Assembly: GCA_003568415.1 (NCBI GenBank) | Contig: PWXV01000058.1 | Coordinates: 1,952 to 65,951, forward strand | Source: Ignavibacteriales bacterium | Lineage (GTDB): Bacteria > Bacteroidota > Ignavibacteria > T3Sed10-11 | Reading direction: 5' to 3' | Length of the DNA stretch: 64,000 bases | Shown here: in pieces, positions 2,510 through 57,785 of the stretch | Layout of the letters: each line of letters starts with the position of its first letter | How positions within the stretch are numbered: position 1 is the stretch's first letter | Program-made: the position numbers and the translations under genes | The notes under the pieces: model-generated | What the model saw: only the letters and a program-made list of their open reading frames with translations | What the model was told of the DNA's origin: nothing | The model's database searches: none

Positions 2510-5500
2510 TTATTCATTCATTGTATTACGCACGCGTTCAATCTCGCGCCGGGCTGCTGCTTTATATTGCCCTTCAATCCCGCGCCGATCGATTATTTCC
2601 TGATACATTGCGATTGCTTCGTTCGGTTTATCCATTTGTTCATATGATTGACCGGCCATGTAGAGTGCTGTTGCGGTCCAATCGAGTTGTGTTGTGCGCG
2701 GATCAATTTCGGTAACTGTTTTGAATTCCCGTATTGCCCGTTTATAATTTCCCATCATATGATATGAATCACCGGTATAATATCGAAGTTCGGTTTCAAG
2801 TGGGCGGTCGGCATAAAGCGTGAGTGATTGAAATACAGATATCGAGCGCTCGTATTGATTCGTGCGCTGATATAATGTTCCCGTTTTAATTTTTTTATCG
2901 ATAACTGCTTCATCGTTCGGGAACCGCTCGATAAACTCTTCGGTCAGTTCAAGTGCCGCTTCGTGAAATCCGATCTCTTCGTATGCCTGGGCAAGGTTCT
3001 GAATTGCATAATACATTAAGCCGTCATCGTCAGAGGCTTTCTCGGAAACTATACGATAATGATCGATCGCGTCGATAAATTGTTCATTCCGTAAAAGGAG
3101 TCCTGCGTAGGCAAGATGAACATGCGGTATTATTTCGGCATTTGAGAAGTTTTGTAATATTTCCTCATACTTATTTCTCGCATCGGTTCTTCGCCCAACT
3201 GCCTCCCACGTCCTTCCGAGATAGAAGTGTGCATCGGCCAGTTTTTCATGTCGCCGGTGTTCCTGTATAAATTGTTGAAATGCCCGCGCCGCATTGTCGT
3301 ATGCTCTTGTCCTGAAACGATGCATTGCAATTTCAAATTCGAACTCTGCTGCTATATCGCTTTCATCCGGATAATTTGATTTGAATGCCTCAATGCGGCG
3401 TCTTCCATCATCGACATTATTACTACGCAAGAGGGCGATTATCTCACGTCGATGGTAGATTTTCCTGACATCGTTTGATCCGGCATGTTCGGCAACCGCG
3501 CGGAGGTGGGGAGCTGCCAGTTCGTATCTGCCGTTGAGATAGAGAAGATCTGCAATATCTTTATTTGCTATTCCGCCGGTAATGATCTCTGAAGCACGCG
3601 AGAAATGATAATCTGATACCTGTGTTTTTCCCTGCTGTCTGTATAATTCACCGAGTATGAGTGACGCAATACCCGCCCGGTCAGATGAGCGGTCCCGCAC
3701 AATATACCGTTCAAAATACTCGATAGCGGTACCATCCAACCCTGCGTGGTGAGCTGCGATTGCTGCATCATACAGTATCGCATCCGGCACATCGACCGGG
3801 TTAAAATATGATGTCTCATGTATTGCAATTATATCTTCGAATAACTCAACTGCTTCACGGTTACGGTTGTCTTTTTTATATGCACGAGCAAGTTCTTTTC
3901 TTGCTTCATTGATCTTGTTATGATAATAGTGATTACGGACAAATTGTGTGTATATCTCGATGGCCTCACGATACCGGTTGTTAGTCTGGTGGAGTTGTGC
4001 TGCCGAAAGCATTGCATCAGCTATATAAGCGCTGCCTGAATACCTGCGCATATATGTTATAAATAAATCGGCAGCCCGGCTTTCTTCCCCCGCAGCAAGA
4101 TGATAGTTCGCAAGCCGAATCGTTGCATCGCCGGCTGCAGGTTGATTTTGATATTGCTGCACTATCTGTTTGTATTTTTCTACGGCATTGGTTCGTTCAC
4201 CGATATCTTCCAGGGTTTCGGCGAGCATCATGCGTACTGTAAGTGTGTGATCCGAACGTGGAAATGTTTCAATGTACTTTTCCGCTGTATTAATAAATTC
4301 TGCCGGTCCGGCTACCGACCGTAACACATCGAGATGATAAAAAGAAATTGTCTCACTATGAGGTGCGCGAGCCGGTCGGTTACTGAGATCGGATAGTTTT
4401 GCAAGTGCTTCAGATCTGCGGTCTTCGGAACGCTGTGCCATTCGGTAAAGCGAATACGCATAAAGATATTCTGCCTGCGTTTTCTTATCGTCCGGCAGCT
4501 CCATAGATAAAGTGGTTTCAAACTGCCGTGCCGCTTCCGGATATTGCTTTAGTTTGTTGAGATATATCTCGCCAAGCTGGAACGCTAGCTCACCGCGGGG
4601 CGATCCGGCGATCATCTCGCTCATAAGCATTGTTATATTCTGAAATCCGCCGTCGCGATCCTGTAAATGGTAAATTTCAAGTTCTTTTTTTAGCTCAGCA
4701 ATATCCACCAATAACGTGCTTCCCGGAAAACGTTCTTGAAATTCCTGCACGATATAGTATGCGTTTTGATCGTTACCGATCTTTAATTGCATTCGTGCCT
4801 GGCCGTACAATGCATCGTCAATGAAACGTGATTCGGGAAAACGGTATGCAAGTTCCTCATAGACCGATAGTGCTTTACGCGGGTCGTTAAGATGCTCTTC
4901 GGCTAACGTACCTAACTGAAATAATGCCTCGGCAGTTAGTGGTGTGTTATAGAGCTCAGCATATCTTCTTAATTTATCGGCCGCATCCCGATAAAGACCT
5001 GCTTGAATTCTGTTCATTGCCGAGCGGATGTATGCCTCTTCTTTTTTGTCGTCGGGTGCGTCGATACCGATAATTCGATCCCACCAGTCTATAGCTTGAT
5101 AGAAATTTCGCATTCCCTCATTACTTCGTGCGGCACCCTGCCAGATTGTTATAAGTTCCTGCCTGGATGCTTCTGAAGCATATTGTCGTGCATAAAGATC
5201 GAAGAACGTTGCGGCGCTGGAGTAATCGCCGAGTGCATTATAACTTTCAGCAATACCGAGCATTGCACGGCGAGCTACATATAACTTGTTTTCATCGGCG
5301 GTTCCTTCTGTAGAACGTTGTGCCCGACGGAATAGATCTACTGCTTCAAGATGTTGACCCTGTTCCTGATGGAGTTCTGCGCGGTGAAGCAGGGCGTTCG
5401 GATAAGAAGAGGTGGTATTGTATCGATCCATAACGCGTTTGTATTCCTCATGTGCCCGATCGAATACACGGAGGTTGTGATATGATTGAGCCAGACCGAG

Positions 5501-6211
5501 TATAGCTTCGGCACGCATACTTACAGACCGGCTGTCGGTTGCTTGATCGGGAATTTCCGAAATAACTCTCCGGAATACGTCGCCGGCTCTTGAATACTCA
5601 CCGGCATCGAGACGATATTGACCGAACCGCAATCTTGCATCAAGAATTACACCCGAACCACTATGCCGCAGTATGATGCGACGTAAATACTCATCGGATT
5701 TATTCCGGTCGCCTGCTTTTTCAAAATAAGTACTTGCTTTAAACAGCGCATCTGGTACGATCTCATGGTCGGGATGAAATTGAAAAAGACGCTCAAGCGC
5801 AAGGCCTGCATCGGGAAACCGTTCCTGGTCGGCATATATAGCGGCGACTTGTACCCACGCATCGGGAGCCCGTGTATGATCGGGGAAGGTTAGCGCAAAT
5901 GTTTGCAATGTCATCCGTGCGTTTTCCTCCTGCCCGAGCTGGCGGTATATCATACCGAGATAATAGCGTGATTCGATACCCTGTGAGGTTTGCGGATGTT
6001 CTTCGATAATAGATCTGAAATGATCCATTGCAAGGCTGTAATTCCCCTCATCGAAGAGTTGCACTGCAAGTACAAAATCATCAATAATTGCAGTATCCCG
6101 GTCTTCAGTTATCACCGTGTCCCGGTCTTCGGTTATCAGAGTGTCAGCCGCATTAGTTGACAGATGAAAAAGGAGGAAGGGAATAACTGCTAAAAATATG
6201 AATACAATACG
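2510..6211 (-). CDS. large tetratricopeptide-repeat (TPR) protein with N-terminal signal/TM segment
   Basis: More than 20 TPR-like 34-aa units (W/LG/Y...A...F...A...P pattern, e.g. YYLGMIYRQLGQEENA, YRLANYHLAAGEES). The likely start is a GTG at 6211 preceded by GGAGAG, giving VQRRIVFIFLAVIPFLLFHLSTNA as a signal/TM. The track's ATG at 6391 is the alternative. Confidence 0.75.
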   Translation of the reverse strand, partial: RIVFIFLAVIPFLLFHLSTNAADTLITEDRDTVITEDRDTAIIDDFVLAVQLFDEGNYSLAMDHFRSIIEEHPQTSQGIESRYYLGMIYRQLGQEENARMTLQTFALTFPDHTRAPDAWVQVAAIYADQERFPDAGLALERLFQFHPDHEIVPDALFKASTYFEKAGDRNKSDEYLRRIILRHSGSGVILDARLRFGQYRLDAGEYSRAGDVFRRVISEIPDQATDSRSVSMRAEAILGLAQSYHNLRVFDRAHEEYKRVMDRYNTTSSYPNALLHRAELHQEQGQHLEAVDLFRRAQRSTEGTADENKLYVARRAMLGIAESYNALGDYSSAATFFDLYARQYASEASRQELITIWQGAARSNEGMRNFYQAIDWWDRIIGIDAPDDKKEEAYIRSAMNRIQAGLYRDAADKLRRYAELYNTPLTAEALFQLGTLAEEHLNDPRKALSVYEELAYRFPESRFIDDALYGQARMQLKIGNDQNAYYIVQEFQERFPGSTLLVDIAELKKELEIYHLQDRDGGFQNITMLMSEMIAGSPRGELAFQLGEIYLNKLKQYPEAARQFETTLSMELPDDKKTQAEYLYAYSLYRMAQRSEDRRSEALAKLSDLSNRPARAPHSETISFYHLDVLRSVAGPAEFINTAEKYIETFPRSDHTLTVRMMLAETLEDIGERTNAVEKYKQIVQQYQNQPAAGDATIRLANYHLAAGEESRAADLFITYMRRYSGSAYIADAMLSAAQLHQTNNRYREAIEIYTQFVRNHYYHNKINEARKELARAYKKDNRNREAVELFEDIIAIHETSYFNPVDVPDAILYDAAIAAHHAGLDGTAIEYFERYIVRDRSSDRAGIASLILGELYRQQGKTQVSDYHFSRASEIITGGIANKDIADLLYLNGRYELAAPHLRAVAEHAGSNDVRKIYHRREIIALLRSNNVDDGRRRIEAFKSNYPDESDIAAEFEFEIAMHRFRTRAYDNAARAFQQFIQEHRRHEKLADAHFYLGRTWEAVGRRTDARNKYEEILQNFSNAEIIPHVHLAYAGLLLRNEQFIDAIDHYRIVSEKASDDDGLMYYAIQNLAQAYEEIGFHEAALELTEEFIERFPNDEAVIDKKIKTGTLYQRTNQYERSISVFQSLTLYADRPLETELRYYTGDSYHMMGNYKRAIREFKTVTEIDPRTTQLDWTATALYMAGQSYEQMDKPNEAIAMYQEIIDRRGIEGQYKAAARREIERVRNTMNE

Positions 6212-6409
6212 TCGCTGCACGTTACATCTCTCCGTAAAGTTTGTTGATATCGTTTGTAAAGGGTGTAATGTCCTAATAATGTGTAAGTTAATATATTTCA
6301 ATGAATACAGCAAACTGGAAGCAGATGTGTGAAGTGTCAACCTGAGAACGGGTTGAAATATTTTTTTTGGCGTGATTATGTGTCTTTTCATACTTGGAAT
6401 AAAAAAAGG

Positions 6410-6461
6410 AGCACGCTTTTATCCCTACAGCAGGATTTTAAGCGTACTCCTCTAAATTGTA
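6410..6461 (-). terminator. intrinsic terminator after the three-gene complex II operon
   Basis: On the minus strand: GGAGTACGCTT...AAGCGTGCTCC, a 12-bp stem with one mismatch, followed by TTTTTTTA. Confidence 0.6.
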
Positions 6462-6489: not shown

Positions 6490-7224
6490 TCAGAATACCG
6501 CTTTCATATACTCACGCCGCATACGTGCAATAGCTTCAATGGAAATCTCTTTCGGACAAACAGCTTCGCACTCGGCGTAGTTCGAACAGTCGCCGAATCC
6601 TTCTTGTTCCATCTGGTCGATCATTCGTCGTGCACGCCGTTTACGCTCGGGTTCACCCTGTGGAAGAAGTGAATATTGCGCGATTTTTGCACCGGTGAAT
6701 AAAGATGCCGATGAGTTCGGACACGCTGCGACACATGCACCGCATCCGATGCAAGCGGCAAAATCCATAGCCCGTTCGGCTTTGTCCTGTGGTATTGGAA
6801 TTGCATTCGCATCCGGCGGTGCTCCGGTGTTAACCGATACATAGCCGCCGGCAATCATAATACGGTCGAATGCACTACGATCGACAACAAGATCTTTAAT
6901 GACAGGAAAACCCTTTGCCCTGAATGGTTCAATTGTTATGGTATCGCCCTCCCGGTAATGGCGCATATGGAGCTGACATGTTGCAGCACCCTGCCAGGGT
7001 CCATGTGCGATGCCATCGATAACCATACCGCACGATCCGCAGATTCCTTCGCGGCAATCGCTATCGAACTCGACCGGTTCCTCACCGTTTGCTATGAGAT
7101 CTTCATTTAAAAAGTCGAGCATTTCAAGAAATGACATATGCTCGTTTGCCTCGACGGTGTAATTCCTGAAACCGCCACGGTCGTTTGGTCCTTTTTGCCG
7201 CCATACTTTCAGATTGAGTTTCAT
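6490..7224 (-). CDS. frdB: succinate dehydrogenase/fumarate reductase iron-sulfur subunit
   Basis: Cysteine clusters for 2Fe-2S ([11 protein letters not shown]), 4Fe-4S ([12 protein letters not shown]) and 3Fe-4S ([15 protein letters not shown]). A GGAGAA RBS precedes the start. Confidence 0.9.
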
Positions 7225-7247
7225 TGAGTGTGTTCTCCGAATAAATT

Positions 7248-9161
7248 TTACTTATAACTTCGTTGCGTAAGTTTAACAGCCTGGAATTTCAGGGGTTCTT
7301 TGTGTAGCTTAGGTTTTTTACCTTCACCTTTATATTCCCAGGCAGCAACGTATGCGAATTCTTTATCATTTCGCAATGCTTCTCCGTCCTCTGTTTGGTA
7401 CTCTTCGCGGAAGTGGCCGCCGCATGATTCGTTACGATGGAGCGCATCCTGTGCCATCAGTTCGCCCAGTTCAAAATAGTCTGCGAGGCGGCCTGCGTAT
7501 TCAAGGTCTTTATTGAGTTCCTGATCGCGGCCGATGAGTTTAAGGTTCTGCCAGAATTCTTCGCGCAGATTTTTGATCTTCTTGACGGCATCTTGCAGGC
7601 TCTTTTTCGTTCGTGCCATTCCCACATTGTTCCACATAATTTTACCGAGCTCGCGATGGAATTGCAGAACAGTCTTGCTGCCGTTAATGCCAAGCAGTTT
7701 TTGCGTCATTTGTTGAACACCATCAGCTGCATCGGCGAATGCATCGTGATTGGATGTAACTTTTGGCAGTTCGGTTGATGCGAGATAATCTCCAATTGTA
7801 TAAGGAATTACAAAATATCCGTCGGCAAGACCCTGCATTAATGCACTTGCACCGAGGCGGTTTGCGCCGTGATCGGAGAAGTTCGCTTCACCAAGCACAT
7901 AGAGCCCCGGTATTGTGCTCATTAAGTTATAATCAACCCAGAGACCGCCCATTGTATAATGTACCGCAGGATAAATGCGCATCGGTACTTCATACGGATT
8001 TTCATCGGTTATGCGTTGATACATATCGAACAGGTTGCTGTATCGCTGACGTATTACATCTTTGCCGAGACGATTAATTGCATCCTGGAAATCGAGATAC
8101 ACGGCAAGACCGGTGTCGCCGACACCACGCCCGTCATCACAGACTTCTTTCGCGGCACGCGAGGAGATGTCACGCGGTGCAAGATTACCGTAACTCGGAT
8201 ACTTTCGTTCAAGATAGTAATCGCGTTCCTCTTCGGGAATGTCACTCGGATGGCGGTTATCACCTTTATTTTTCGGTACCCATACACGCCCGTCGTTCCG
8301 TAGACTCTCGCTCATCAAGGTGAGTTTGGATTGATAGTCTCCCGATTGCGGTATACACGTGGGGTGTATCTGTGTGAAGCAGGGGTTACCGAAGGCTGCG
8401 CCGCGTTTGTAACATCGCCAGACGGCGGTAGCATTGGAGTTTTTAGCATTTGTTGAAAGGTAGTACACATTGCCATATCCGCCGGTACATAATAGCACCG
8501 CATCTGCTTCGTGCCGTTCTATAACACCGGTAATGAGGTTACGGGTAATGATTCCGCGTGCCTTGCCGTCGATAATGACAAGATCGAGCATTTCACGGCG
8601 GGGGAACTGTTTTACCTTTCCGGCTTCAACCTGACGCATCATAGCACTGTATGCACCGAGCAAAAGTTGCTGACCGGTTTGTCCGCGTGCATAGAATGTT
8701 CGTGATACCTGTGCACCTCCGAATGAACGGTTAGCAAGTAAACCGCCGTATTCCCGCGCGAATGGTACACCTTGAGCTACACATTGATCAATAATTGCAT
8801 TGCTCACTTGTGCGAGCCGGTATACGTTTGCTTCACGCGCACGGAAGTCGCCGCCTTTGACGGTATCTGCAAACAACCGTTCAATGGTATCACCGTCGTT
8901 TGGATAATTCTTGGCTGCATTAATACCACCCTGTGCTGCGATACTGTGGGCACGGCGCGATGTATCGTGAATGAAATAGGCTTTGACATTGTAGCCGAGT
9001 TCACCAAGCGATGCTGCGGCTGAAGCACCGGCAAGGCCGGTACCGACTACTATGATAGTGAATTTTCTTTTGTTAGCCGGATTGACAAGCTTTATGCTGT
9101 TTTTGTGGCGATCCCATTTTTCTTGAACGGGACCGGCAGGGATTTTAGAATCGAGTTTCAT
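7248..9161 (-). CDS. frdA: succinate dehydrogenase/fumarate reductase flavoprotein subunit
   Basis: N-terminal FAD-binding GxGxxG ([13 protein letters not shown]), the covalent-FAD His region ([12 protein letters not shown]), the HPT motif, and a C-terminal [14 protein letters not shown] active site. GAGGA RBS. Confidence 0.9.
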
Positions 9162-9184
9162 TATGATCCTCTATAAGATATGAT

Positions 9185-9895
9185 TCAGACGAAAAAGTAA
9201 ATGTAGATCGGTAGAAAGAGAAAACCAAATGCAATAAGCACGGCGAATATACCGCCAATCGTATAGATGATTGGTGATATGCGTGGATTATTTGCTCCCA
9301 GAGACTGAAAGGCGCTCCACACTCCGTGCCGTAGATGGAAACCGAGTAATATCATTACAAAAACATAACCGATGACGTATCCCTCTTTTTTAAATACGTC
9401 GGTGATACGTTGATGCACATCCTTAAGGGGTTCGCCATCAACAATGATCTCTTCCCCCGCTTCGGTAGCGACGTACCCTTCTTCCACACCGGGTCCCCAT
9501 TTAAATGTCTGCAGGTGAAAGATTATAAATATGCCGAGAATTATACCCGTCCATATCATGGTTTTTGAACTAAAATTTTTCTTACTCTCGCCACCCCGTG
9601 TTGCCGATACTGCGTAATCTACCGGTCGGAGTTTTTTCCTCCTGAGATAGATCACGATACCGAGTATAATGTGCAGCACGATCGCTACAAGGAGAATGAT
9701 CTCGGTTAGGTAAAACAGCGCACCAAGACTATGCAAGAAGTGTGCATATCTGTTGATGGCATTAGGATCGCTGTCGAAATACGCAAGATTTCCTAATAGG
9801 TGAACAAGCACGAACAAGCTGAGTAGTATGCCGGTTATTCCGGTAAATACTTTTTTCCCGACGCTTGTCCATGCTGCTGATTTTAACGAAGGCAT
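9185..9895 (-). CDS. succinate dehydrogenase/fumarate reductase cytochrome b subunit, single-anchor b558 family
   Basis: 236-aa protein with five predicted TM helices. It is the first gene of the CAB-order operon typical of type-B (Bacillus/Wolinella/Bacteroides-like) complex II. GAGGAA RBS. Confidence 0.8.
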   Translation of the reverse strand: MPSLKSAAWTSVGKKVFTGITGILLSLFVLVHLLGNLAYFDSDPNAINRYAHFLHSLGALFYLTEIILLVAIVLHIILGIVIYLRRKKLRPVDYAVSATRGGESKKNFSSKTMIWTGIILGIFIIFHLQTFKWGPGVEEGYVATEAGEEIIVDGEPLKDVHQRITDVFKKEGYVIGYVFVMILLGFHLRHGVWSAFQSLGANNPRISPIIYTIGGIFAVLIAFGFLFLPIYIYFFV

Positions 9896-10057
9896 GTTTT
9901 GATTCCTCTTAACATTACTTAATAGCGTGACGGTGAAACATGGAATTTTTCAGAAAAGGTGTCTGCAGATCGCAATTATATTGTTTTAAAGGTATTAAAG
10001 TATGAAATAATAATCAAGCGGTGAAATAGAGAAGGCGGGACAGGAAACAGTGTGATG

Positions 10058-10131
10058 GTATATATAAAGGCAAAACAATGAAGGGCAACATAATTATTAC
10101 AAGAAATGGTATTGCCCAAAATTGTTTTGCC
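10058..10131 (-). terminator. intrinsic terminator between the two complex II operons
   Basis: Perfect 11-bp inverted repeat GGCAAAACAAT / ATTGTTTTGCC with a nested GGGCAA/TTGCCC inner stem, followed on the minus strand by TTTATATATA. Confidence 0.55.
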
Positions 10132-10158
10132 TCTGGCTTCAAGAAAAATTGATTTATT

Positions 10159-10863
10159 TCAGATTTCTCTGGTTACGATCGCCTTTTTCAGTTGCGAGAG
10201 ATGAAAGGTAACATCGATCTCTTTTGGACAGGCTTCCACACAATTGAAGATTGTCCGGCAGCGCCATACGCCGTCACTGTGATCAAGAATATTCAGACGT
10301 TCACCGGCACCGTCATCGCGCGAGTCGAATATGAAACGGTATGCTTTCAGTAAAGCGGCCGGTCCGAGAAAGTCCGGGTTGCTCCAGTTCGACGGACAGC
10401 TCGTGCTGCAAGCACCACACATTATACACCAGGTGGATTCATCTATCAAGCGCTGTTCTTGCATGCTTTGCAAACGTTCCGTTGGCGGTGGAGGATTATT
10501 GTTGATCAGATATGGTTTTATCACCGTATATTTTTGGTAGAATGTGTCCATATTTACGATGAGATCCTTGATCACGGGAAGCGATGGTAATGGATCAATC
10601 GTTATGGTGTGTTGCTTTTTCAGGTTGCCGATCAACGCTTCGCAGGTGAGCATATTTTCACCGTTGACGGTCATAGCGCACGAACCGCATATGCCATGCG
10701 CGCAGGATCGCCTGAAGGCAAGTGTGCCGTCCTGTTCCCATTTCACTCTGTGCAGCAGATCGAGTACCTTTTCTTTCTTGTCCGCTTCAACTTCGTAGGT
10801 TTTATAATGCGGTTTGGTGTCGGTTTCAGGATTGTAACGGAATAATCTAAGTTTGATCTTCAT
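10159..10863 (-). CDS. sdhB: succinate dehydrogenase iron-sulfur subunit
   Basis: SCAHGICGSCAM (2Fe-2S), CIMCGACSTSCP and CVEACPKEI cysteine clusters. Confidence 0.9.
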   Translation of the reverse strand: MKIKLRLFRYNPETDTKPHYKTYEVEADKKEKVLDLLHRVKWEQDGTLAFRRSCAHGICGSCAMTVNGENMLTCEALIGNLKKQHTITIDPLPSLPVIKDLIVNMDTFYQKYTVIKPYLINNNPPPPTERLQSMQEQRLIDESTWCIMCGACSTSCPSNWSNPDFLGPAALLKAYRFIFDSRDDGAGERLNILDHSDGVWRCRTIFNCVEACPKEIDVTFHLSQLKKAIVTREI

Positions 10864-10864
10864 A

Positions 10865-12598
10865 TTAATATTTCCTTTCCTGCGGCTGGAATTTTGTAAT
10901 CACGACCGGTTTGTAAGTGAACTCAATAGTGCCGTCGTCTTTGCGAAGTGCGATGGTATGTTTCAGCCAGTCGTTATCATCGCGTTTCGGAAAATCGATG
11001 CGGGCGTGCCCGCCGCGGCTTTCGTGACGGTTAAGCGCGCCGGCTACGATGTGCCGGGCAAAATCGAGCAGATTGCCAAGCTCAAGTGCTTCGGCGAGGT
11101 CGGTGTTGAAAACCGTTCCTTTGTCATCGATCTGTATATTTGCAAACCGCTGCTCCAGCTCCTCAACTTTAGTCAGTCCTTCTTTCAGATTGTTTTCATC
11201 GCGATAAACACCGACTTTTTCATTCATTACTGCCTGTAATTCATTACGCAGTGTCCCGACCTTTTCGGTGCCGGTATTATTCTTAATTTTATCAACCCTG
11301 TCCAGCGATGCTTTGAATTGATCCTCGACATACTCAGCTTTCACGGTTCCGTTCTCATTCAGGAATCTTACAATCGATTTGCCGGCGCGTCTGCCGTAAA
11401 CCACTGCATCAAGCAAGCTGTTGGTACCGAGTCGATTGGCACCATGCACTGAAACACATGCACATTCACCTGCTGCATAAAAACCCTCGACTTTGTTATC
11501 GATACCGTCGGCGAGTACTTCGGCATCGACCGTTACCGGTATGCCGCCCATCGAGTAGTGTGCAGTCGGCTCAATGGGAATCGGTTCTTTAACCGGATCT
11601 ACGCCGACCAATTTTCTGCAAAATCCCATGATCTCCGGGAGTCGTTCTTTGAGGCGTTCCTCACCGAGATGCCGTAAGTCAAGGTGGACGCATCGTTTGC
11701 CGTCGATACCACGTCCTTCATTTATTTCCGTCCAGATCGACCGCGATACAAGATCGCGCGGGGCAAGCTCCATTACTTTCGGGGCATATTGTTTCATAAA
11801 GCGCTCGCCGTCATTATTTAACAGATACCCGCCTTCTCCACGCGCTCCTTCGGTAACAAGAATACCGTACGCATAAATACCTGTCGGGTGGAACTGCACG
11901 AACTCCATATCCTCAAGCGGAATACCTGCGCGCACCGTGATACCCAAACCGTCGCCGGTATTCGCGTGTGCATTTGATGTGATCTTGTATGCACGTCCGT
12001 ATCCACCGGTACCGAACATTACCACTTTTGAGTGGAACGAAACAAACCTTCCATTCGGCATATCGTATGCAACGAGTCCTCTGGTTATATTATCTTTAAC
12101 TAAAAGATCGACTGCATAATATTCATTGTAAAACTTCACATTGTTTTTGACGCATTGTTCATACAATGTGTGGAGGAGAACATGCCCGGTACGGTCGGCA
12201 GCGTAACAAGCACGGAGCACAGCAGCCTCACCGTAGTTTTTCGTATGACCGCCAAACTTGCGCTGGGCGATTTTGCCTTCGGCAGTTCGGCTGAATGGGG
12301 TTCCTAAGTGTTCGAGTTCAAAGAGTGTGGGGAGTGCATCGTTCACGAGCAGTTCGATTGCATCCTGATCACCGAGATAATCCGACCCCTTTACGGTATC
12401 GAAGAAATGCCAGTCAATATGGTCTTCTTCTTCATTTGCCAGAGCCGCCGCGATTCCGCCCTGGGCTGCACCTGAGTGCGAGCGAAGGGGAAAGAGTTTC
12501 GAAACGACGGCAACATCGTAATATTGAGATGCTTCAAGTGCTGCCCGTAATCCCGCTAATCCGCTTCCCACAATAACAACATCGTGTGATAGTTTCAT
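10865..12598 (-). CDS. sdhA: succinate dehydrogenase flavoprotein subunit
   Basis: [17 protein letters not shown] dinucleotide fold, [12 protein letters not shown] covalent-FAD histidine region, HPTG motif, C-terminal [10 protein letters not shown]. Confidence 0.9.
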
Positions 12599-12623
12599 GG
12601 TTTAATTTCCTTTTTCTTGAGCA

Positions 12624-12977
12624 TTAAAAATGTAAGATGTTTGCTATACCGAGTGCCCCGAATCCTATCCCGAGCAATATCAGCAAACTCAATACCGTCA
12701 TATTAAGCCAGGACGGTAGTTTAAAATCTCTGTAGATGTTCCATACACCCTGCAATCCGTGATACAGGGCGAGCACTACAAATGCAATCTGTAACATCTG
12801 GTAGTATGGATTCTGCATTCGTTCGTAGACCCGGTCGTATAAGTGTCCCATTTCAGGATTATAGTGCATAAGGATAAAGTGCCCGACCATGACAACTACG
12901 AGCACGACACCGCTGATGCGCTGAAGAAACCAGCTCATCGACCCGGACGCGCGTGATCCTATATATTTATATTCCAT
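12624..12977 (-). CDS. sdhD: succinate dehydrogenase hydrophobic membrane anchor subunit
   Basis: 117 aa with three hydrophobic helices, sitting between sdhC and sdhA. Confidence 0.65.
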   Translation of the reverse strand: MEYKYIGSRASGSMSWFLQRISGVVLVVVMVGHFILMHYNPEMGHLYDRVYERMQNPYYQMLQIAFVVLALYHGLQGVWNIYRDFKLPSWLNMTVLSLLILLGIGFGALGIANILHF

Positions 12978-12998
12978 GGTAAAACTCCTTGATCATAT

Positions 12999-13427
12999 TC
13001 AGGAAAAGAAAGAAACGGCATAGGACAGGAAATCATGGTCAGAGTGACCGAAGAAAATGATATATCCCATCCAGAGAAAGACGACAAGCCCGACTGCGAT
13101 GGCACCGTATAATAATTGTTTATGATATTTAGCGCCTCTGCCAAAGTCGATGATTACAATACGGATGCCGTTCAGGGTGTGGTAGATGACGAGTCCGAAA
13201 AGAATCCACGCAGCAAATAACCAATGGGGTTGCATAAAAACCTGCATCTTTGCATTAAATGCTTCGGGACCTTCCTGGAGTGATGCGAGCGTATTAATGT
13301 GGACAAGTACATATACCGTTAAGCCGAGTCCGGTAATGCGGTGCAGAAGCCACGCCCAGCTTCCTGAGAATTTCCTGTAACGCACTACATTTGAAATCCA
13401 TTCATTCGTTGGTGATTTTTCATACAT
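12999..13427 (-). CDS. sdhC: succinate dehydrogenase cytochrome b556 subunit
   Basis: 142 aa with three TM helices, an LHRITG motif and a conserved His. It is the first gene of an sdhCDAB-order operon. Confidence 0.75.
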   Translation of the reverse strand: MYEKSPTNEWISNVVRYRKFSGSWAWLLHRITGLGLTVYVLVHINTLASLQEGPEAFNAKMQVFMQPHWLFAAWILFGLVIYHTLNGIRIVIIDFGRGAKYHKQLLYGAIAVGLVVFLWMGYIIFFGHSDHDFLSYAVSFFS

Positions 13428-13631
13428 AGGAATTGACTCCTTGATTTGCTCTTGGTTAGAAAAGCGAGTGGTGAGATGATTTGGTTCATAAAGATAAACC
13501 TGCGCGTGGTGTGAGAAGTGTTACGAGACAGTAGGAAATACCATTATCGATAAGGTGCTGACTGTAATACTTCTCCGGTTTGTTTATATATTGTACAAGT
13601 TATAAAAGTACCGTAATGAAGTCAAGTAGCA

Positions 13632-32143: not shown

Positions 32144-32158
32144 AAGACCTCATATAGA

Positions 32159-32204
32159 GTCCCCCCTCGCCAAGGGGGGACACCGTATTGTAATTGTATT
32201 TTTT
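32159..32204 (+). terminator. intrinsic terminator after pfkA
   Basis: GTCCCCCC-TCGCCAA-GGGGGGAC, an 8-bp GC stem, followed downstream by a T-rich run (TATTTTTTGGG). Confidence 0.6.
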
Positions 32205-32346
32205 GGGCAGCCCCATTTCAATTTTATCACACCTATTTATGTAGTATAGACTCTTAGACCAGACTTGCTTCTCCCCTCCACCTTTTCTATATTATATGTG
32301 ATGTGAAAAACCGTGCTTTGTTAACTATTTTGAATAAAATGTGGGG

Positions 32347-33057
32347 ATGTTGATCTACATGCAGAGATTGTTTGGAGGGAAGACTTTCCGGCCTTTACTA
32401 ATCATATTGATTTTCATGTTTGCTGGAATACCGGATCTGTTTGCCGGTGAAGCGGAGGAATCCGCATTTCGCATCGGCAGGTTGGAATACCGGGGGGGCG
32501 GTGATTGGTATGTCGGACCGAGTGCCGAACCCAATTTACTTGAGTATATCCGTGAACATACCAATGTACCGGTAAAACCGGCTTATGAGCCTGTGGATAT
32601 AATGAGTGATAAGCTCTTTAGCTACTCGATGATATTTTTAACCGGTCACGGCAATATTTCTTTCAATGAGCAGGAACGGCAGCGCCTGCGTGAATATTTC
32701 CGGCGTGGTGGCTTTCTTTATGCAGACGATTGTTATGGTATGGATGCTGCCTTCCGCCGCGAGATGGGAAAGCTGTTTCCCGATCAGGAATTGGTTGAAC
32801 TACCGTTCTCGCACCCGATCTATACTATAAAATACGATTTTTCAAACGGACCGCCAAAGATTCATGAGCATGACGGAAAACCTCCACAGGGATTCGGACT
32901 TTTTAAAGACGGACGACTTGTTGTATATTATACGTACGAAGCCGATCCGCATGACGGATGGGTTGATGAGCGAGTTCACGGGAATCCATGGGATGTTCGG
33001 GAAATGGCATTGCAATTCGGAACGAACATTGTCCTCTGGCTGTTGACAAAATCATAA
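32347..33057 (+). CDS. DUF4159-like protein (predicted class-I glutamine amidotransferase-like fold) with N-terminal signal/TM
   Basis: About 235 aa, starting with a hydrophobic segment and containing IFLTGHGNISFNEQERQRLREYFRRGGFLYADDC. I assign it to DUF4159 from memory of that family and its genomic partners; I did not search. The start could be 32341, 32347 or 32359. Confidence 0.55.
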   Translation: MLIYMQRLFGGKTFRPLLIILIFMFAGIPDLFAGEAEESAFRIGRLEYRGGGDWYVGPSAEPNLLEYIREHTNVPVKPAYEPVDIMSDKLFSYSMIFLTGHGNISFNEQERQRLREYFRRGGFLYADDCYGMDAAFRREMGKLFPDQELVELPFSHPIYTIKYDFSNGPPKIHEHDGKPPQGFGLFKDGRLVVYYTYEADPHDGWVDERVHGNPWDVREMALQFGTNIVLWLLTKS

Positions 33058-33073
33058 GAGGAATAAGGATAGT

Positions 33074-36000
33074 ATGTCGCCGCATCGTGTTTCTGAAATA
33101 GAAAAAACCATATCGAAAAAGCTCCATGCACTGCGTAAGAAAGATGAACGCCTAAATCTATTATCCGGTGCATTGTTGGTGGCCGGGGCTTTCATCGCAT
33201 CATTCGGTTTACTCAGTATTCTCGAAGGGCTTTTTTATTTTCCGGCTGCTGTTCGAACCGGTTTGGTTTTCGGTGCAGCAATAATTGTGGCGATACTCGG
33301 CATTATCTTTTTGGTAAAACCTCTTCTTGTTTCGGTTGGAGTACTGAAACGTAAAAATGATCTCGACCTTGCCCATATCGCCGGGAAACATTTCCCGGCC
33401 ATAAAAGACCGGTTATATAATCTGCTTCAACTCGCTGAAGACAGAAAGAGCGGAACACTTCGATATTCCGCCGAACTCATTGACGCATCCTATAGTGATC
33501 TTGCAGACGAAGTAGAGAAAAACGATTTCAATCAGTCGATTACCTTTACTAAACCGATACAGATTGGTCGAAGCGTACTCTACGGATGTATATTTCTGGG
33601 TATATTGTTTCTCATATCTCCTCAATATTTTGGCGATGCTGTTTATCGTGTTGCTCACTTCGGTGAGGAGTTTGAGACACCACAGGCGTTTGCACTCTCA
33701 ATCGAACCGGGTGATATTGAAACAGTCAGAGGTGACAGCGTAACAATTCGGGTTCATGTTGAAGGCGATCCCCAACCGGAAATATCTCTCTATACACGAC
33801 AGGAAGGTCAGGTAGACTTTGAGAAGTTTGTAATCGATGACCCATCCGGTGCTGCATTTACCTATCCAATAAATCAGATACGACGGACAACGGAATACTA
33901 CGCAGCCCGGAAAGATCAAAAAACACCGCAGCATAAAATTACAGTACATGACCGCCCGACGGTAAGGAATTTAAATGTCACTTTAAATTATCCCTCGTAT
34001 ACGGCATTACCGGCCCGTACTCTTGATGATGATACCGGCAATATAACAGCTATTCGCGGTACCCGTGCGACGGTAGAGATTTTATCGAACAAAGAACTTG
34101 CCGAAGCAACGATAGTGTTTCGTGAATATGATGATGTCGAAATGGATGTTGAGGGAAATAAAGCGCGTGCACAGTTCACAGTCAATAACGACGACCGCTA
34201 TCATATTGACCTGCAGGACACCGGTGAGATCCGGAGCGCTGATCCTGTAGAATACCAGATTCGCATGGTAGAGGATGAATATCCCCTGATTACAATCGTT
34301 GAACCGGGGCGCGATAAGAACATTGATGAAAATCTCCGGGTGCCGATGATGTTCCGGATACAGGACGATTATGGTTTTACCAGACTTCAGCTTGGTTATA
34401 AACTGGATGAATCGCGCTATGAGCCGGCACATGAAGAATATACCTATATCGATATTCCGATCTCCTCCGGTGCATCGAATGATGAAATCGTTGAATATCT
34501 ATGGAATGTACGTGATCATATGAGTCTCGCCCCTGAAGATGTGGTCAGTTATTATGCTGTCGTGTATGATAACGATACGGTCAGCGGTCCAAAGCGGGGG
34601 GAAAGTGAAACCTATGTATTCAGATTGCCGTCACTCGATGAGGTGTTTGCAGAGATGGACAGGCAGCAATCGGAATCACGTGAAGATCTTGAATACTCTG
34701 CTGAAGAAGCTGAACTACTTAAACGTGAACTTGACGATATACGTAAAGAATTACAGCTTGCACAGCATGAAATGAACTGGGAACGCGAGCAACGGATGAA
34801 AGATATGCTCGACCGGTATGAGGAACTGCAGCAAAACCTCGAACAGATGGGGCAGGATCTCGATGAGATGATCGACGATATGCAGCGGCATGATGTTTTG
34901 TCACCTGAAACCCTCGAAAAATATCTCGAACTGCAGGAGTTATATCAACAGCTCAGCGATCCTGAATTCAAGAAAGCGATGGAAAAACTGCGTGAAGCGA
35001 TGGATAAAATGGATCCAAATCAATTGCGTGAAGCAATGCAGGATATGACCTTTAATGAAGAGCAGTTCAGACAATCGCTTGACCGCACACTAAATCTGTT
35101 AAAGAGAGTGCAGATTGAACAAAAAGTTGATGAATTATTAAAACGTGCTGAACAAATGGTCGAAGAGCAGCACGCTGTTGAAGATGAACTTGATGCAATG
35201 GATGAGGCCGATACAGAAGCAACGCAGCAACTTGATCAGCAACTTGATGATTTGAAGCAGCAGCTTGAGCGGATGAAAGAAGAACTTGCAGATCTGCAAG
35301 ACCGGATGGAAGAATTTCCGACAGAGATGCCCCTTGATGATCTGCAAAAAACAATGGATGATATGGATGCCGCCGGTATGGAGCAAAAGATTGACCAAAT
35401 GAAACAGCAGATGCAGCAAGGGGAAATGCAGGACGCCAAACAGCAGCACGGTCAAATCCGGCAGGACCTCAATCAGATGCAGGATAATCTCGCACGAATG
35501 CAGCAATCGTTGCTTGAGGATCAGATGCGTCAGATAGTGAATGAGATGCGGCGTGCATTGCGAAATATTAACGATCTTTCAAAACGGCAGGAACGGTTGC
35601 GTGATGAAACCCGCTCGCTCGAACCCAATTCTCAGTTGTTCCGCGATAATGCGCGAAAACAAAGCGAGGTGAGGTCAGATCTCAGCAGCGTTGTCGACGA
35701 TCTGGTATCCTTGTCACAAAAAACGTTCGCGATTACCCCGGAAATGGGTCGTGCTATCGGTCGTTCATTTCAACAGATGGAAGAAGCTCTTGACCGTCTT
35801 AATGCCAGAAGCGGTAATCAGGCATCACGGCAGCAGGAAGGGGCAATGGCTTCATTAAATGATGCATCGTTGTTATTGCAGCAATCGTTACAGGCGATGA
35901 TGGAGGGGGGCGGTCAGGGAGGCATGCAGGGTTTTATGCAGCAACTTCAGAATATGGCCGGTCAACAGCAGCAAATTAATTTAGAAACGGGAGAACTCGG

Positions 36001-36472
36001 TGACGGTCAGATGACGATGGAGCAACAGGCACAGATGGCGCGGTTAGCGGGAGAGCAGGAAGCGGTTCGCCGGTCGCTTGAAGAACTTCAACATGAAATG
36101 GAGGGTAGAGGCGCCCGCGAAAGAATCCTCGGTGATCTCGACCGGATCGAAGAGGATATGCGTGAGGTGGTGAGCGGTTTGTCTGCTGATGAACTGCAGC
36201 CTGAAACTATACGACGGCAGGAACGAATTCTCAGCCGTTTACTCGATGCCCAGCGCTCTATACGTGAACGCGATTATGAAGAGAGACGTGAAGGTGAAAT
36301 TGCCGATCAGATTCTAAGAGATAGTCCACCCGAAATCGATTTAACAACACAGGAGGGCCGTGACAGATTACGTGAGGATATGCTTCGCGCAGTACGCGAG
36401 GGATATTCACGCGACTATGAACAATTGATACGACGATATTTTGAATTATTGCAGGACATTGAACAAGAGTAA
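33074..36472 (+). CDS. 1132-aa membrane protein: 2 N-terminal TM helices, beta-rich domain, ~550-aa Q/E/M-rich coiled-coil (DUF4175-like?)
   Basis: Good RBS (AGAGGAA). Two TM helices at aa ~30-85. A long heptad-like region (…MQQGEMQDAKQQHGQIRQDLNQMQDNLARMQQSL…) and a Gly/Gln stretch (GGGQGGMQGFMQQLQNMAGQQQQ). Confidence 0.65.
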   Translation: MSPHRVSEIEKTISKKLHALRKKDERLNLLSGALLVAGAFIASFGLLSILEGLFYFPAAVRTGLVFGAAIIVAILGIIFLVKPLLVSVGVLKRKNDLDLAHIAGKHFPAIKDRLYNLLQLAEDRKSGTLRYSAELIDASYSDLADEVEKNDFNQSITFTKPIQIGRSVLYGCIFLGILFLISPQYFGDAVYRVAHFGEEFETPQAFALSIEPGDIETVRGDSVTIRVHVEGDPQPEISLYTRQEGQVDFEKFVIDDPSGAAFTYPINQIRRTTEYYAARKDQKTPQHKITVHDRPTVRNLNVTLNYPSYTALPARTLDDDTGNITAIRGTRATVEILSNKELAEATIVFREYDDVEMDVEGNKARAQFTVNNDDRYHIDLQDTGEIRSADPVEYQIRMVEDEYPLITIVEPGRDKNIDENLRVPMMFRIQDDYGFTRLQLGYKLDESRYEPAHEEYTYIDIPISSGASNDEIVEYLWNVRDHMSLAPEDVVSYYAVVYDNDTVSGPKRGESETYVFRLPSLDEVFAEMDRQQSESREDLEYSAEEAELLKRELDDIRKELQLAQHEMNWEREQRMKDMLDRYEELQQNLEQMGQDLDEMIDDMQRHDVLSPETLEKYLELQELYQQLSDPEFKKAMEKLREAMDKMDPNQLREAMQDMTFNEEQFRQSLDRTLNLLKRVQIEQKVDELLKRAEQMVEEQHAVEDELDAMDEADTEATQQLDQQLDDLKQQLERMKEELADLQDRMEEFPTEMPLDDLQKTMDDMDAAGMEQKIDQMKQQMQQGEMQDAKQQHGQIRQDLNQMQDNLARMQQSLLEDQMRQIVNEMRRALRNINDLSKRQERLRDETRSLEPNSQLFRDNARKQSEVRSDLSSVVDDLVSLSQKTFAITPEMGRAIGRSFQQMEEALDRLNARSGNQASRQQEGAMASLNDASLLLQQSLQAMMEGGGQGGMQGFMQQLQNMAGQQQQINLETGELGDGQMTMEQQAQMARLAGEQEAVRRSLEELQHEMEGRGARERILGDLDRIEEDMREVVSGLSADELQPETIRRQERILSRLLDAQRSIRERDYEERREGEIADQILRDSPPEIDLTTQEGRDRLREDMLRAVREGYSRDYEQLIRRYFELLQDIEQE

Positions 36473-36489
36473 TATAACTAATAAAGTAC

Positions 36490-51547: not shown

Positions 51548-52411
51548 ATGAATAAGAAGAGTAAACTGTCAATGACGACAGTAATTGGCTTTGCGCTGGT
51601 TTTCGCAATTATGTTCGGTTTGAACTCATGCGCGCCGGCTGAAGATGAAATCCATCTCGGCTATGTTCTCTGGGATTCAGAGATAGCATCGACACACGTT
51701 GTTGCTGCCATTCTTGAAGATGATCTCGGCTACAATGTACGGTTAACATCAGTTGATGCTGGTCCGATGTGGACCGGTTTAGCACGGGGTGATTTCGATG
51801 CAATGGTTGCAGCATGGCTGCCCGCAACACACGAAGCATATCTCGAGCAAACGCAGGATCGGGTTCGTGATCTCGGACCGAATCTTGACGGCGCAAAAAT
51901 CGGTTGGGTTGTACCGCAATATGTACCTGTTAACAGCATTGATGAACTCAACGATTACGTCGATGAGTTTGACGGTGAAGTTATCGGTATCGATCCGGGC
52001 GCCGGCCTGATGGCGGCAAGCGATAGGGCGATGGATGAATATGATCTTAACTATACGCTTGTTGAAGGATCAGATGCTGCCATGACCGCCGCTCTTGATC
52101 GGGCATATGATCGTGAAGAATGGATTATCGTTACCGGCTGGATACCACACTGGAAGTTCGCAGCGTATGATCTGAAGTTCCTCGATGACCCGCTCGGTAC
52201 ATTCGGTGAAGCAGAGTCGATCCATACTATCGTAACGCCGGACCTCGACGAGCGGATGCCCGAAGCATTTGCTTTCCTGGATAACTTCTACTGGACGGCT
52301 GAAGATATGGGTGAAGTTATGATCATGGTCGAAGACGGTATGGAGCCTTTTGATGCAGCACGAGCGTGGATAGCCGATAACCGTGATAAAGTAGAAACAT
52401 GGTTACCGTAA
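51548..52411 (+). CDS. opuAC: glycine betaine/proline ABC transporter substrate-binding lipoprotein (OpuAC/ProX family)
   Basis: Lipobox LNSCA. HLGYVLWDSEIASTHV...DAMVAAWLP...IVTGWIPHWKF, the OpuAC-fold aromatic cage. Confidence 0.85.
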   Translation: MNKKSKLSMTTVIGFALVFAIMFGLNSCAPAEDEIHLGYVLWDSEIASTHVVAAILEDDLGYNVRLTSVDAGPMWTGLARGDFDAMVAAWLPATHEAYLEQTQDRVRDLGPNLDGAKIGWVVPQYVPVNSIDELNDYVDEFDGEVIGIDPGAGLMAASDRAMDEYDLNYTLVEGSDAAMTAALDRAYDREEWIIVTGWIPHWKFAAYDLKFLDDPLGTFGEAESIHTIVTPDLDERMPEAFAFLDNFYWTAEDMGEVMIMVEDGMEPFDAARAWIADNRDKVETWLP

Positions 52412-52424
52412 TCTAACGTAATTC

Positions 52425-52460
52425 AGAGAGCGGGAAAACCTCCCGCTCTCTTTTTTTATT
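52425..52460 (+). terminator. intrinsic terminator/attenuator between opuAC and opuAA
   Basis: AGAGAGCGGGA-AAACC-TCCCGCTCTCT, an 11-bp stem, followed by TTTTTTT. Confidence 0.7.
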
Positions 52461-52490
52461 TAATCCGTGAAAAACATTACAAAGAAATTT

Positions 52491-53741: not shown

Positions 53742-53762
53742 TTTTTTAAAGGAGATTGAGAG

Positions 53763-54599: not shown

Positions 54600-54639
54600 G
54601 CATAGTAATCCCCTCGTTAATTTATATGAAGGAGTTTTT

Positions 54640-54975
54640 ATGCAAAGAAAAGGTACCTATAGTCACAACTACAACCCGGAACGGCTGCGCGAGTTAATAG
54701 AGGAGGGGAGGACAGCCAAAGAAATCATGAAAGATCTGAAGATATCGAAGTACAGTCTCTATGAGCATTTGCTTATGCTGCAGGACGAAGATGGGAAGCT
54801 TTACACAATTGAGGGACTATTCGATATTCCCACAGAAGAAGAGCGAAAGTGGATGAAGTATAAGAAAAACGGCGTCATTTTTTCAGAGCGCATGCTCGAG
54901 TATGCCGGTTTTAAACCCGGGGACGCTTTTGAGATGGTGGTTGAGGAGGATCGGGTGATACTAAAAAAGATTTAA
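54640..54975 (+). CDS. small putative DNA-binding protein: N-terminal HTH-like + C-terminal AbrB/SpoVT-like swapped-hairpin domain
   Basis: AAGGAG RBS. HTH-like RTAKEIMKDLKISKYSLYEHL, and a C-terminal GVIFSERMLEYAGFKPGDAFEMVVEEDRVILKK. Confidence 0.5.
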   Translation: MQRKGTYSHNYNPERLRELIEEGRTAKEIMKDLKISKYSLYEHLLMLQDEDGKLYTIEGLFDIPTEEERKWMKYKKNGVIFSERMLEYAGFKPGDAFEMVVEEDRVILKKI

Positions 54976-55011
54976 TCAACCAAACTATAATTAATACGTT
55001 AAGGAAAAAAT

Positions 55012-56580: not shown

Positions 56581-56655
56581 AGTTTACAAACCGGCTCCCA
56601 TAATGGCCTCGTGGGGGTTGTGATTTATTAACCAGAGGCAATTTTGAGGTTAATT

Positions 56656-57579: not shown

Positions 57580-57785
57580 ATTACGATGCCGGGTATATTG
57601 GGTGATATGGTTTTTTAAATGAGATTATCCGGTATACCCGGCAGTACTAAGGTAGATTGTTTTATCCCCCAATTGTCTCAGGCTATATGAGATTCGTTCA
57701 TCTCTAATAAAGTTTGTAGAATTCATTCCTTCTACTTATCATTATATTCAAATTAATATTTTAGACACAATACCGGCACATAGTT

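Follow-up and report, generated by a model that had tools for sequence, protein, structure and literature searches.

Several bacteria are known to carry more than one complex II, the enzyme that acts either as a succinate:quinone reductase (SQR) or as a quinol:fumarate reductase (QFR): Escherichia coli has the succinate dehydrogenase (SDH) Sdh and the fumarate reductase (FRD) Frd, mycobacteria have Sdh1, Sdh2, and Frd, Wolinella has Frd and MFR, and Pelotomaculum has two succinate dehydrogenases. As far as is known, the complex II operons of these organisms are dispersed. Where such genomes have been studied, the paralogues were found to be differentially regulated (PMC4145680, PMC10308238, PMC2680327). 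In this work, we discuss a pair of complex II operons in a 64,000-nucleotide stretch of DNA from an Ignavibacteriales bacterium (GenBank assembly GCA_003568415.1, contig PWXV01000058.1, positions 1,952 to 65,951 of the forward strand), the whole of which is referred to below as the window. The pair consists of a four-gene sdhCDAB operon (enzyme 1) and a three-gene operon for a cytochrome b558, a flavoprotein, and an iron–sulfur (Fe-S) subunit (enzyme 2), and, unlike in the cases named above, the two operons lie head-to-tail with a spacer of only 263 nt between sdhB and the b558 gene, and combine a type A with a type B enzyme, both apparently of the two-haem kind. We read the locus as encoding two independent two-haem isoenzymes expressed from separate transcription units, of which the type A enzyme would work as an SQR and the type B enzyme mainly as a QFR. 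For this reading as a whole we would put the probability at about 0.55; the part that concerns anatomy and history is near certain, and the assignment of direction, taken alone, falls somewhat short of an even chance.

The closest solved relative of enzyme 1 is Sdh2 of Mycobacterium smegmatis (SdhCDAB plus SdhF, structure 6LUM), a type A succinate:menaquinone reductase with the same gene order, sdhC-D-A-B, as the operon described here. Sdh2 has been classed as type A by its two anchors and two haems (PMC4145680), and in this type the proximal haem is ligated by helices II and V and the distal haem by helices I and IV, the ligands in Sdh2 being His47 and His87 of chain C and His65 and His107 of chain D (PMC7447783). 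The two enzymes have in common two small anchors of the Sdh_cyt family, all four haem histidines, and a glutamine after the histidine of the flavin adenine dinucleotide (FAD) site; they differ in that their anchors are only distantly similar and in that the host of Sdh2 is an actinobacterium, whereas the host here belongs to the Fibrobacteres–Chlorobi–Bacteroidetes (FCB) group. The additional subunit SdhF has been reported mainly in mycobacteria (PMC7447783). Enzyme 1 may also be likened to the Thermus enzyme, with its two anchors and two haems b. For enzyme 2, the nearest solved structure is that of Chloroflexus aurantiacus (9LAY), which likewise has three subunits, an anchor of the b558 family, four aligned histidines, and no equivalents of Glu66 and Glu180 of Wolinella FrdC. 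The anchor similarity (79 bits) is, however, far below that of the flavoprotein (1081 bits), and the seven-residue loop with Glu64, which belongs to an unusual distal quinone site in Chloroflexus (PMC12663545), is absent from enzyme 2. A second group of relatives, likened to enzyme 2 by their published description, is FrdCAB of Bacteroides and Prevotella, members of the same superphylum, which show the same three-gene architecture and the same four-histidine, two-haem pattern in obligately anaerobic hosts with a single complex II; this enzyme uses menaquinone and lacks a protonatable residue in the place of the E-pathway glutamate (PMC10739449). The Bacillus enzyme also resembles enzyme 2 in its single five-helix, two-haem anchor. 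Among organisms related by lineage or habitat, a single complex II, of three genes, has been described for Caldithrix abyssi (PMC5317091), the account of Melioribacter roseus does no more than mention the enzyme (PMC5492636), and two papers on soda-lake metagenome-assembled genomes (MAGs) contain nothing on the genes treated here (PMC6146748, PMC6704655).

The locus is composed of seven contiguous open reading frames (ORFs), all of them on the minus strand, and their positions in the ORF list of the window are identical to those first reported (Table 1). All seven assignments exceed the curated cut-offs of the respective families in searches against Pfam and NCBIfam. A total of 18 contigs carry the b558 protein, and the gene order is the same in all six places shown, among them the MAG GCA_003561255.1; these places come from assemblies of Kulunda-type soda-lake samples in ENA, JGI, Logan, and NCBI. 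Because the same order recurs across contigs from these four sources, the arrangement is real, and an assembly artefact can be ruled out.

Enzyme 1 is predicted to be a type A complex II, with two small anchors and four haem-ligating histidines. The best match of SdhC among solved structures is chain C of Sdh2 (6LUM_C, E = 6e-18), and its candidate haem ligands, His43 (distal) and His83 (proximal), align with His47 and His87 of that chain; the best match of SdhD is 6LUM_D (E = 1.5e-7), where the candidate ligands His33 (distal) and His73 (proximal) align with His65 and His107. The counterpart of Tyr83 of E. coli SdhD would be Phe85 in this subunit. Its flavoprotein, SdhA1, scores highest against 6LUM_A (687 bits), ahead of E. 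coli SdhA (583) and E. coli FrdA (467), and passes the 'sdhA_forward' equivalog TIGR01816, in which the flavoprotein of the second operon, SdhA2, reaches only 252 bits. The FAD histidine of SdhA1 is His41, with Gln46 five residues on, and the translation of SdhB1 contains the cysteine clusters C54/59/62/74, C146/149/152/156, and C202/208/212.

Enzyme 2 has the predicted architecture of a type B complex II, with a single five-helix b558 anchor and four haem-ligating histidines. The b558 subunit, at 236 aa, is within the size range of such anchors (about 210–260 aa), its hydropathy scan reveals five hydrophobic segments, its sole match in the Protein Data Bank (PDB) is chain C of the Chloroflexus enzyme (9LAY_C, E = 4e-21), and its candidate haem ligands, His32, His75, His127, and His187, all align with histidines of that chain. 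Four haem-ligating histidines in helices I, II, IV, and V are the pattern that has been described for the FrdC subunits of Prevotella and Wolinella (PMC10739449). The alignment of SdhA2 to 9LAY_A runs through 635 residues without a gap, and the protein falls within TIGR01811/NF005749, the clade of the Bacillus subtilis type, which is of mixed catalytic direction; its FAD histidine is His72, with Gln77 five residues on. The cysteine clusters of SdhB2, also read from the translation, are C56/61/64/83, C157/160/163/167, and C214/220/224.

The domains PF00890, PF02910, and PF13085 were found in both sets, both flavoproteins have the motif of the covalently bound FAD histidine (R-S/A-H-S/T-x-A-A-Q/E-G-G), and both Fe-S subunits have the three standard cysteine clusters (2Fe-2S, 4Fe-4S, and 3Fe-4S). 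Both enzymes are thus equipped, to judge by their conserved ligands, to hold two haems b. A two-haem design has been linked to low-potential menaquinone and to transmembrane electron transfer (PMC7447783, PMC12663545), and, given this design and a host of the FCB group, menaquinone is probably the substrate of both. The preliminary description of this locus had proposed two different complex II operons placed head-to-tail on one strand, with clearly distinct flavoprotein and Fe-S paralogs, and this holds. SdhA1 and SdhA2 are 28% identical, as are SdhB1 and SdhB2; since both pairs of subunits have diverged this far, the two sets are ancient paralogues, that is, isoenzymes that separated long ago, and a recent duplication is ruled out. 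Placement by the cut-offs of hidden Markov model (HMM) families and by PDB rankings likewise puts the flavoproteins in different clades (SdhA1 in TIGR01816, SdhA2 in TIGR01811/NF005749) and not in one functional clade, which the preliminary description had named as the outcome that would speak for a recent duplication. Because the clades differ, a division of labour between the two enzymes is plausible.

Table 1. Genes and putative control elements of the two complex II operons, in window positions and listed in the order of transcription.
Feature	Position	Strand	Description	Family match or sequence detail
sdhCDAB promoter-like block	13595-13626	minus	-35 at 13625-13620, -10 at 13602-13597	CTTGACT-N17-TAACTT
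sdhC	13427-12999	minus	142 aa, larger anchor of the type A enzyme	PF01127; TIGR02970, 71.9 bits (cut-off 52.3)
sdhD	12977-12624	minus	117 aa, smaller anchor of the type A enzyme	PF01127; TIGR02968, 46.1 bits (cut-off 41.8)
sdhA (SdhA1)	12598-10865	minus	577 aa, type A flavoprotein	TIGR01816, 815 bits (cut-off 727)
sdhB (SdhB1)	10863-10159	minus	234 aa, type A Fe-S subunit	NF004616, 328 bits (cut-off 228)
Inter-operon hairpin	10068-10132	minus	65 nt, imperfect, 26 nt past the sdhB stop	arms 10068-10095 and 10105-10132
Type-B promoter-like block	9985-10017	minus	-35 at 10017-10012, -10 at 9994-9989	TTGATT-N17-TACCTT
Cytochrome b558 gene	9895-9185	minus	236 aa, single anchor of the type B enzyme	TIGR02046, 158 bits (cut-off 96)
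Type B flavoprotein gene (SdhA2)	9161-7248	minus	637 aa	NF005749, 1182 bits (cut-off 866); TIGR01811 sdhA_Bsu, 965 bits (cut-off 541)
Type B Fe-S subunit gene (SdhB2)	7224-6490	minus	244 aa	NF005746, 413 bits (cut-off 243)
Type-B operon intrinsic terminator	6401-6451	minus	12-bp GC-rich stem, then seven T	stem 6407-6418/6440-6451

Each of the two operons is preceded by a promoter-like block, and both blocks were recognised through cross-species alignment; a scan of the window for the sigma-70 consensus missed them, their -10 elements, TAACTT and TACCTT, matching that consensus at only three of six positions. The block ahead of sdhCDAB starts 6 nt past the stop codon of the FtsX gene, is followed by a leader of about 170–190 nt and then by sdhC, and is kept in the window as well as in the retrieved loci L009, L095, L092, L096, L008, and L010. 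The block ahead of the b558 gene, conserved as GCTTGATTATTATTTCATACTTTAATACCTTTAAA in the alignment of the upstream regions of eight lineages, occurs once in the window, has a conserved leader of about 90 nt behind it, and is present in all five lineages that have the tandem and also in L087, whose type-B operon comes after PFK and not after sdhB; because it is kept in that context, the block belongs to the type-B operon. The design shared by the two, TTGAyT-N17-TAmCTT, has the layout expected of a housekeeping sigma factor, and a promoter function may be supposed. The leaders themselves (13428-13631 and 9896-10017, both minus strand) are conserved across species and have no match in Rfam, and the motifs conserved upstream of sdhC include CTTCTCA and AGGTTTAC..TATGAA; leaders of this length could be targets of post-transcriptional control. 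Neither a family of Rfam nor a tRNA was found anywhere in the window.

At the other ends of the operons, the terminator of the type-B operon is of textbook form (dG -27.3 kcal/mol, z = -5.7). The hairpin between the operons also folds far better than expected (dG -29.4 kcal/mol, z = -5.3, with none of 200 shuffled sequences folding as well); its tail, UUUAUAUAUA, has no clean run of U, and the scan for terminators did not flag it. A dispersed repeat, such as a repetitive extragenic palindromic element (REP) or a miniature inverted-repeat transposable element (MITE), was considered for this hairpin and rejected, as the window holds no second copy. Among the relatives, the sdhB-proximal part of the spacer is hypervariable, with lengths between 133 and 430 nt: the hairpin that L009 has in this position is unrelated in sequence (z = -5.5), the spacer of L095 contains long purine-rich arms and their complement, and no hairpin lies between sdhB and the type-B promoter block in L092/93. 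In this genome, transcription therefore probably ends between the operons, yet, because the hairpin of L009 is unrelated and L092/93 have none, termination there is not a conserved feature. With a promoter-like block and a terminator-like hairpin for each operon, we consider it likely that the two are separate transcription units. The preliminary description had gone further in its account of the spacer and of regulation. It had the operons separated only by an intrinsic terminator, and the hairpin is real, but it shares the spacer with a promoter-like block and a leader; it gave each operon its own terminator, which is right for the type-B operon and for sdhCDAB is best put as a terminator-like hairpin with a weak tail; and of the separate regulation that it proposed, what the blocks and hairpins bear out is that transcription is likely to be separate.

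The history of the arrangement can be followed through its relatives. We scanned 185,579 species genomes with SdhB1 and then compared all seven proteins with the retrieved loci by tblastn; eight lineages of the family, which comprises haloalkaliphilic MAGs of the FCB group, were sampled through the type-B operon. The tandem occurs in five of the eight (the window species, L009, L095, L092/93, and L089/90). In L087/88, the type-B operon follows PFK, and in L094 it lies in an unrelated context. L091 (4336-7267) has, behind FtsX, a pair of small genes without annotation and about 1.6 kb of non-coding DNA rich in repeats, after which comes the type-B operon; its flavoprotein is 84% identical to that of the window, and there is no sdhCDAB at this locus. 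A ninth lineage, L007, has sdhCDAB followed by a photolyase gene, with no type-B operon downstream. Outside the family, SdhCDAB operons of this kind are present in Calditrichota (SdhB 64–69% and SdhA 72–78% identical), and also in Kryptoniota, Ignavibacteria, Marinimicrobia, and some Chloroflexota and Acidobacteriota. The identity of the type-B flavoprotein, 84–93% within the family, falls to 76–79% in KSB1, Calditrichota, Balneolales, Acidobacteriota, and others. At about 75–79%, flavoprotein relatives thus exist in several phyla, in Calditrichota for SdhA1 and in the phyla just named and Chloroflexota for SdhA2, so that either operon may have come by vertical descent or by horizontal transfer. 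We also note that in an Acidobacteriota MAG (L085, 3533-10696) a divergently oriented complex II-like set adjoins sdhCDAB (A-like protein 47% and B-like protein 34% identical), which is a further side-by-side pair of complex II loci in a different phylum.

Two comparisons of gene order bear directly on how the tandem came about. In many Kryptoniota and 'Bacteroidetes' MAGs among L026-L050, the homologue of a tetratricopeptide repeat (TPR) protein that has 1293 aa in the window directly follows sdhB; in the window, this gene comes after the type-B operon instead. Since the outgroups have the TPR gene directly after sdhB, the type-B operon looks inserted between the two. The TPR ORF itself (window 2510-6391, 1293 aa) begins only 10 nt past the T-run of the type-B terminator, and gene callers on identical contigs alternate between 1293 aa and 1236 aa, the shorter start being probably the real one. 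The second comparison is with L087 and L096, which are parts of one 1.29-Mb contig (JGI contig Ga0645779_00027) with the order typeB<-PFK<-...<-BamA<-UppS / YbaB->...->FtsX->sdhCDAB->DUF4159->1132 aa->718 aa, to be set against TPR<-typeB<-sdhCDAB<-FtsX...YbaB / UppS->BamA...->PFK->DUF4159->1132 aa->718 aa in the window. What sets the two apart is an inversion of some 22 kb (window 10159-32143), with breakpoints in the inter-operon spacer (9896-10158) and in the spacer between PFK and DUF4159 (32144-32340), between genomes whose flavoproteins are about 91–92% identical, and the inversion leaves the operons apart and each of them intact. No convincing inverted repeat was found at the two breakpoints, where inspection by eye gave only about 17 of 20 nt of similarity, and the spacers at the breakpoints have diverged too far from one genome to the other for the junctions to be mapped. 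The trio behind the far breakpoint, which is conserved and consists of a DUF4159 protein, a DUF4175 protein of 1132 aa, and a protein of 718 aa without a Pfam match (window 32341-38646), follows PFK in the window and sdhB in the inverted relative. In L095, a co-occurring relative (5834-6130, after sdhB), about 150 nt of repeats rich in GGATGA and GGATGG are followed by a complement rich in CCATTCC, and the contigs of L008 and L010 end exactly after sdhB; these repeats and contig ends suggest that the spot after sdhB is a hotspot for assembly breaks and rearrangements. Because the inversion separates the operons and both survive it intact, their adjacency is not functionally required, and it is near certain that the tandem is a lineage-specific layout that can be explained historically and has been inherited by most of the family.

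It is in the catalytic roles that the reading given at the outset has to be weighed most carefully, and a number of points weigh against it, here on the side of direction and, further below, on that of transcription. The direction of neither enzyme can be read from its sequence. Both flavoproteins have glutamine, not glutamate, five residues past the FAD histidine (Q46 and Q77), and by a criterion based on the E. coli enzymes glutamine marks an efficient SQR and glutamate an efficient QFR (PMC4145680). Neither flavoprotein reaches the cut-off of a dedicated QFR equivalog (TIGR01176, NF006686, or NF006383): in TIGR01176, SdhA1 scores 600 and SdhA2 245 bits against a cut-off of 932.7, and in NF006383 the type B flavoprotein scores 241 bits against 663. 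Together with the haem ligands of the anchors, the glutamine and the equivalog scores separate both enzymes from the E. coli FrdABCD type (type D), whose two anchors are haem-free. Nor does enzyme 2 have the features of the electroneutral, Wolinella-type QFR of epsilonproteobacteria, as its b558 subunit has His55 and Gly185, in the alignment to 9LAY_C, at the positions of Glu66 and Glu180 of Wolinella FrdC, for which the Chloroflexus equivalents are Arg54 and Ala186 (PMC12663545); this E-pathway signature is likewise absent from the Prevotella QFR (PMC10739449) and from the SQRs of Bacillus and Chloroflexus. The Chloroflexus enzyme, the nearest solved relative of enzyme 2, has been presented as an SQR under oxic conditions (PMC12663545), and, if sdhCDAB is truly absent from the L091 genome, the type B enzyme would be the sole dehydrogenase there. 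The pairing of a dedicated SQR with a dedicated QFR, as put forward in the preliminary description, consequently lacks support in that form, in view of the glutamines, the equivalog scores, the two-haem anchors, and the missing E-pathway glutamates; the sequence markers favour neither these labels nor the metabolic switch that was read from them, and the reductive branch of the tricarboxylic acid (TCA) cycle that was suggested along with it has no support in the window.

These same observations make a case for the chief rival, in which both enzymes are succinate:menaquinone reductases that serve under different energetic conditions (high as opposed to low oxygen or membrane potential), and neither is a physiological fumarate reductase, much as in the pairs of succinate dehydrogenases of mycobacteria or Pelotomaculum. 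Both flavoproteins have the SQR-type glutamine and none passes a QFR equivalog, the nearest solved relatives, 6LUM and 9LAY, are both described as SQRs (PMC7447783, PMC12663545), M. smegmatis has two differentially regulated succinate dehydrogenases and no Frd activity (PMC4145680), and Pelotomaculum uses two succinate dehydrogenases (PMC10308238). It nevertheless has to contend with the type B enzymes of the same superphylum, which act as QFRs in Prevotella (PMC10739449) and in Bacteroides thetaiotaomicron (PMC5210497), with the first purification of the Chloroflexus enzyme as a menaquinol:fumarate oxidoreductase, as given by an entry in the reference list of PMC12663545, and with the fact that fumarate reduction is the downhill direction with menaquinone. 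We regard two dehydrogenases as a real but distinctly weaker contender, to which we would give somewhat less than one chance in three. In the reading that we prefer, enzyme 1 would be the succinate:menaquinone reductase of the TCA cycle, the membrane potential helping to pull electrons across the membrane, and enzyme 2 would be reversible and act mainly as a menaquinol:fumarate reductase or, alternatively, as a second dehydrogenase at low oxygen or low membrane energisation. The passage of SdhA1 through 'sdhA_forward' is consistent with the first role, as is the lack of fumarate reductase activity in Sdh2, its closest solved relative (PMC4145680); for the second role speaks the QFR function of type B relatives from the FCB group in Prevotella (PMC10739449). 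Two-haem designs are used by menaquinone organisms in either direction, and the case of the Wolinella 'SdhABE', a fumarate reductase in spite of its name (PMC2680327), cautions against taking direction from annotation.

On the side of transcription, our reading would have the operons as separate units that are neighbours by history. The blocks taken as promoters are consensus-like matches only, and in L092/93, with no hairpin ahead of the type-B promoter block, read-through and co-transcription are possible, so that in some lineages the two may be less separate than in the window. Taken to its limit, this would make all seven genes one co-transcribed and functionally coupled unit, with the hairpin as an attenuator or an element of RNA stability; the common strand, the retention of the tandem in most of the sampled lineages, and the unflagged hairpin with its imperfect tail would fit such a unit as well. 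It is difficult to reconcile with a promoter-like block that precedes the b558 gene and moves along with it to other contexts, with the inversion in L087/L096 that splits the operons and leaves both intact, or with L094, L091, and L007, where the operons stand alone, and we think a single unit improbable, at somewhat under one chance in ten.

The idea that one of the operons lacks a function of its own, being recently duplicated, in decay, or a passenger of recent transfer, for which only the apparent insertion of the type-B operon relative to the outgroups would speak, is effectively refuted by the low identity of the paralogues, by ORFs that are all intact and have every cofactor ligand, by an unremarkable GC content, and by the rates of substitution. 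In comparisons of four lineages, all seven genes have non-synonymous divergence (dN) of 0.03–0.12 and saturated synonymous divergence (dS); the ratio dN/dS stays under 0.07 in every case that allows its calculation, and divergence proceeds in parallel in the two operons. These values point to strong purifying selection on all seven genes, and because dN and dN/dS are low and the divergence is parallel, both operons are functional and co-inherited.

One may ask what the pairing of a type A with a type B enzyme might offer to a cell that lives at about pH 10. With an inverted pH gradient, the oxidation of succinate by menaquinone would be hard to drive; one enzyme could reduce menaquinone at a distal site, pulled by the membrane potential, and the other could work at a proximal site without that help, or in reverse, and the pair would then run or buffer the succinate/fumarate step whatever the energisation of the membrane. 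That the pairing is an adaptation of this kind is a long shot, the grounds for it being the habitat, the fact that both are two-haem enzymes, and their retention in most of the sampled lineages.

The remainder of the window fits the setting in which these genes have been found. The neighbours are housekeeping genes, namely BamA and UppS, as identified from the gene calls and Pfam domains of the identical locus L001, and Pfam scans of the window add Skp/OmpH, LpxD, an LpxC-FabZ fusion, SurE, PFK, RseP, and Dxr, as well as a PAS kinase with a LuxR-type regulator. At 51548-59336, there is a dense cluster for the uptake of compatible solutes by glycine-betaine ABC and BCCT transporters, consisting of two OpuAC binding proteins, an ABC ATPase with CBS domains, a permease, and two BCCT transporters, and one protein of the window has a type IX secretion sorting domain. 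The solute cluster and the sorting domain fit a halophilic member of the FCB superphylum from a hypersaline habitat, and related MAGs are labelled 'Ignavibacteriales' or 'Bacteroidetes bacterium' by NCBI. No oxidase, quinone-biosynthesis, or reductive-TCA gene is present within the window.

The presence of several complex II isoenzymes in one genome is already well known, and the present locus does not change any concept. It does indicate that the annotation shortcut by which four subunits stand for SDH and three subunits for FRD is unjustified for two-haem menaquinone enzymes, and it provides a natural experiment on operon adjacency, as close relatives have the operons in tandem, split by an inversion, or single, with the promoter block retained. 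For the family itself, the finding is that an uncultured haloalkaliphilic lineage of the FCB group has retained enzymes of type A and type B, both of the menaquinone type, together, and, if cultures or metatranscriptomes become available, it would be a convenient system in which to understand why one cell retains a pair of enzymes dependent on the membrane potential.

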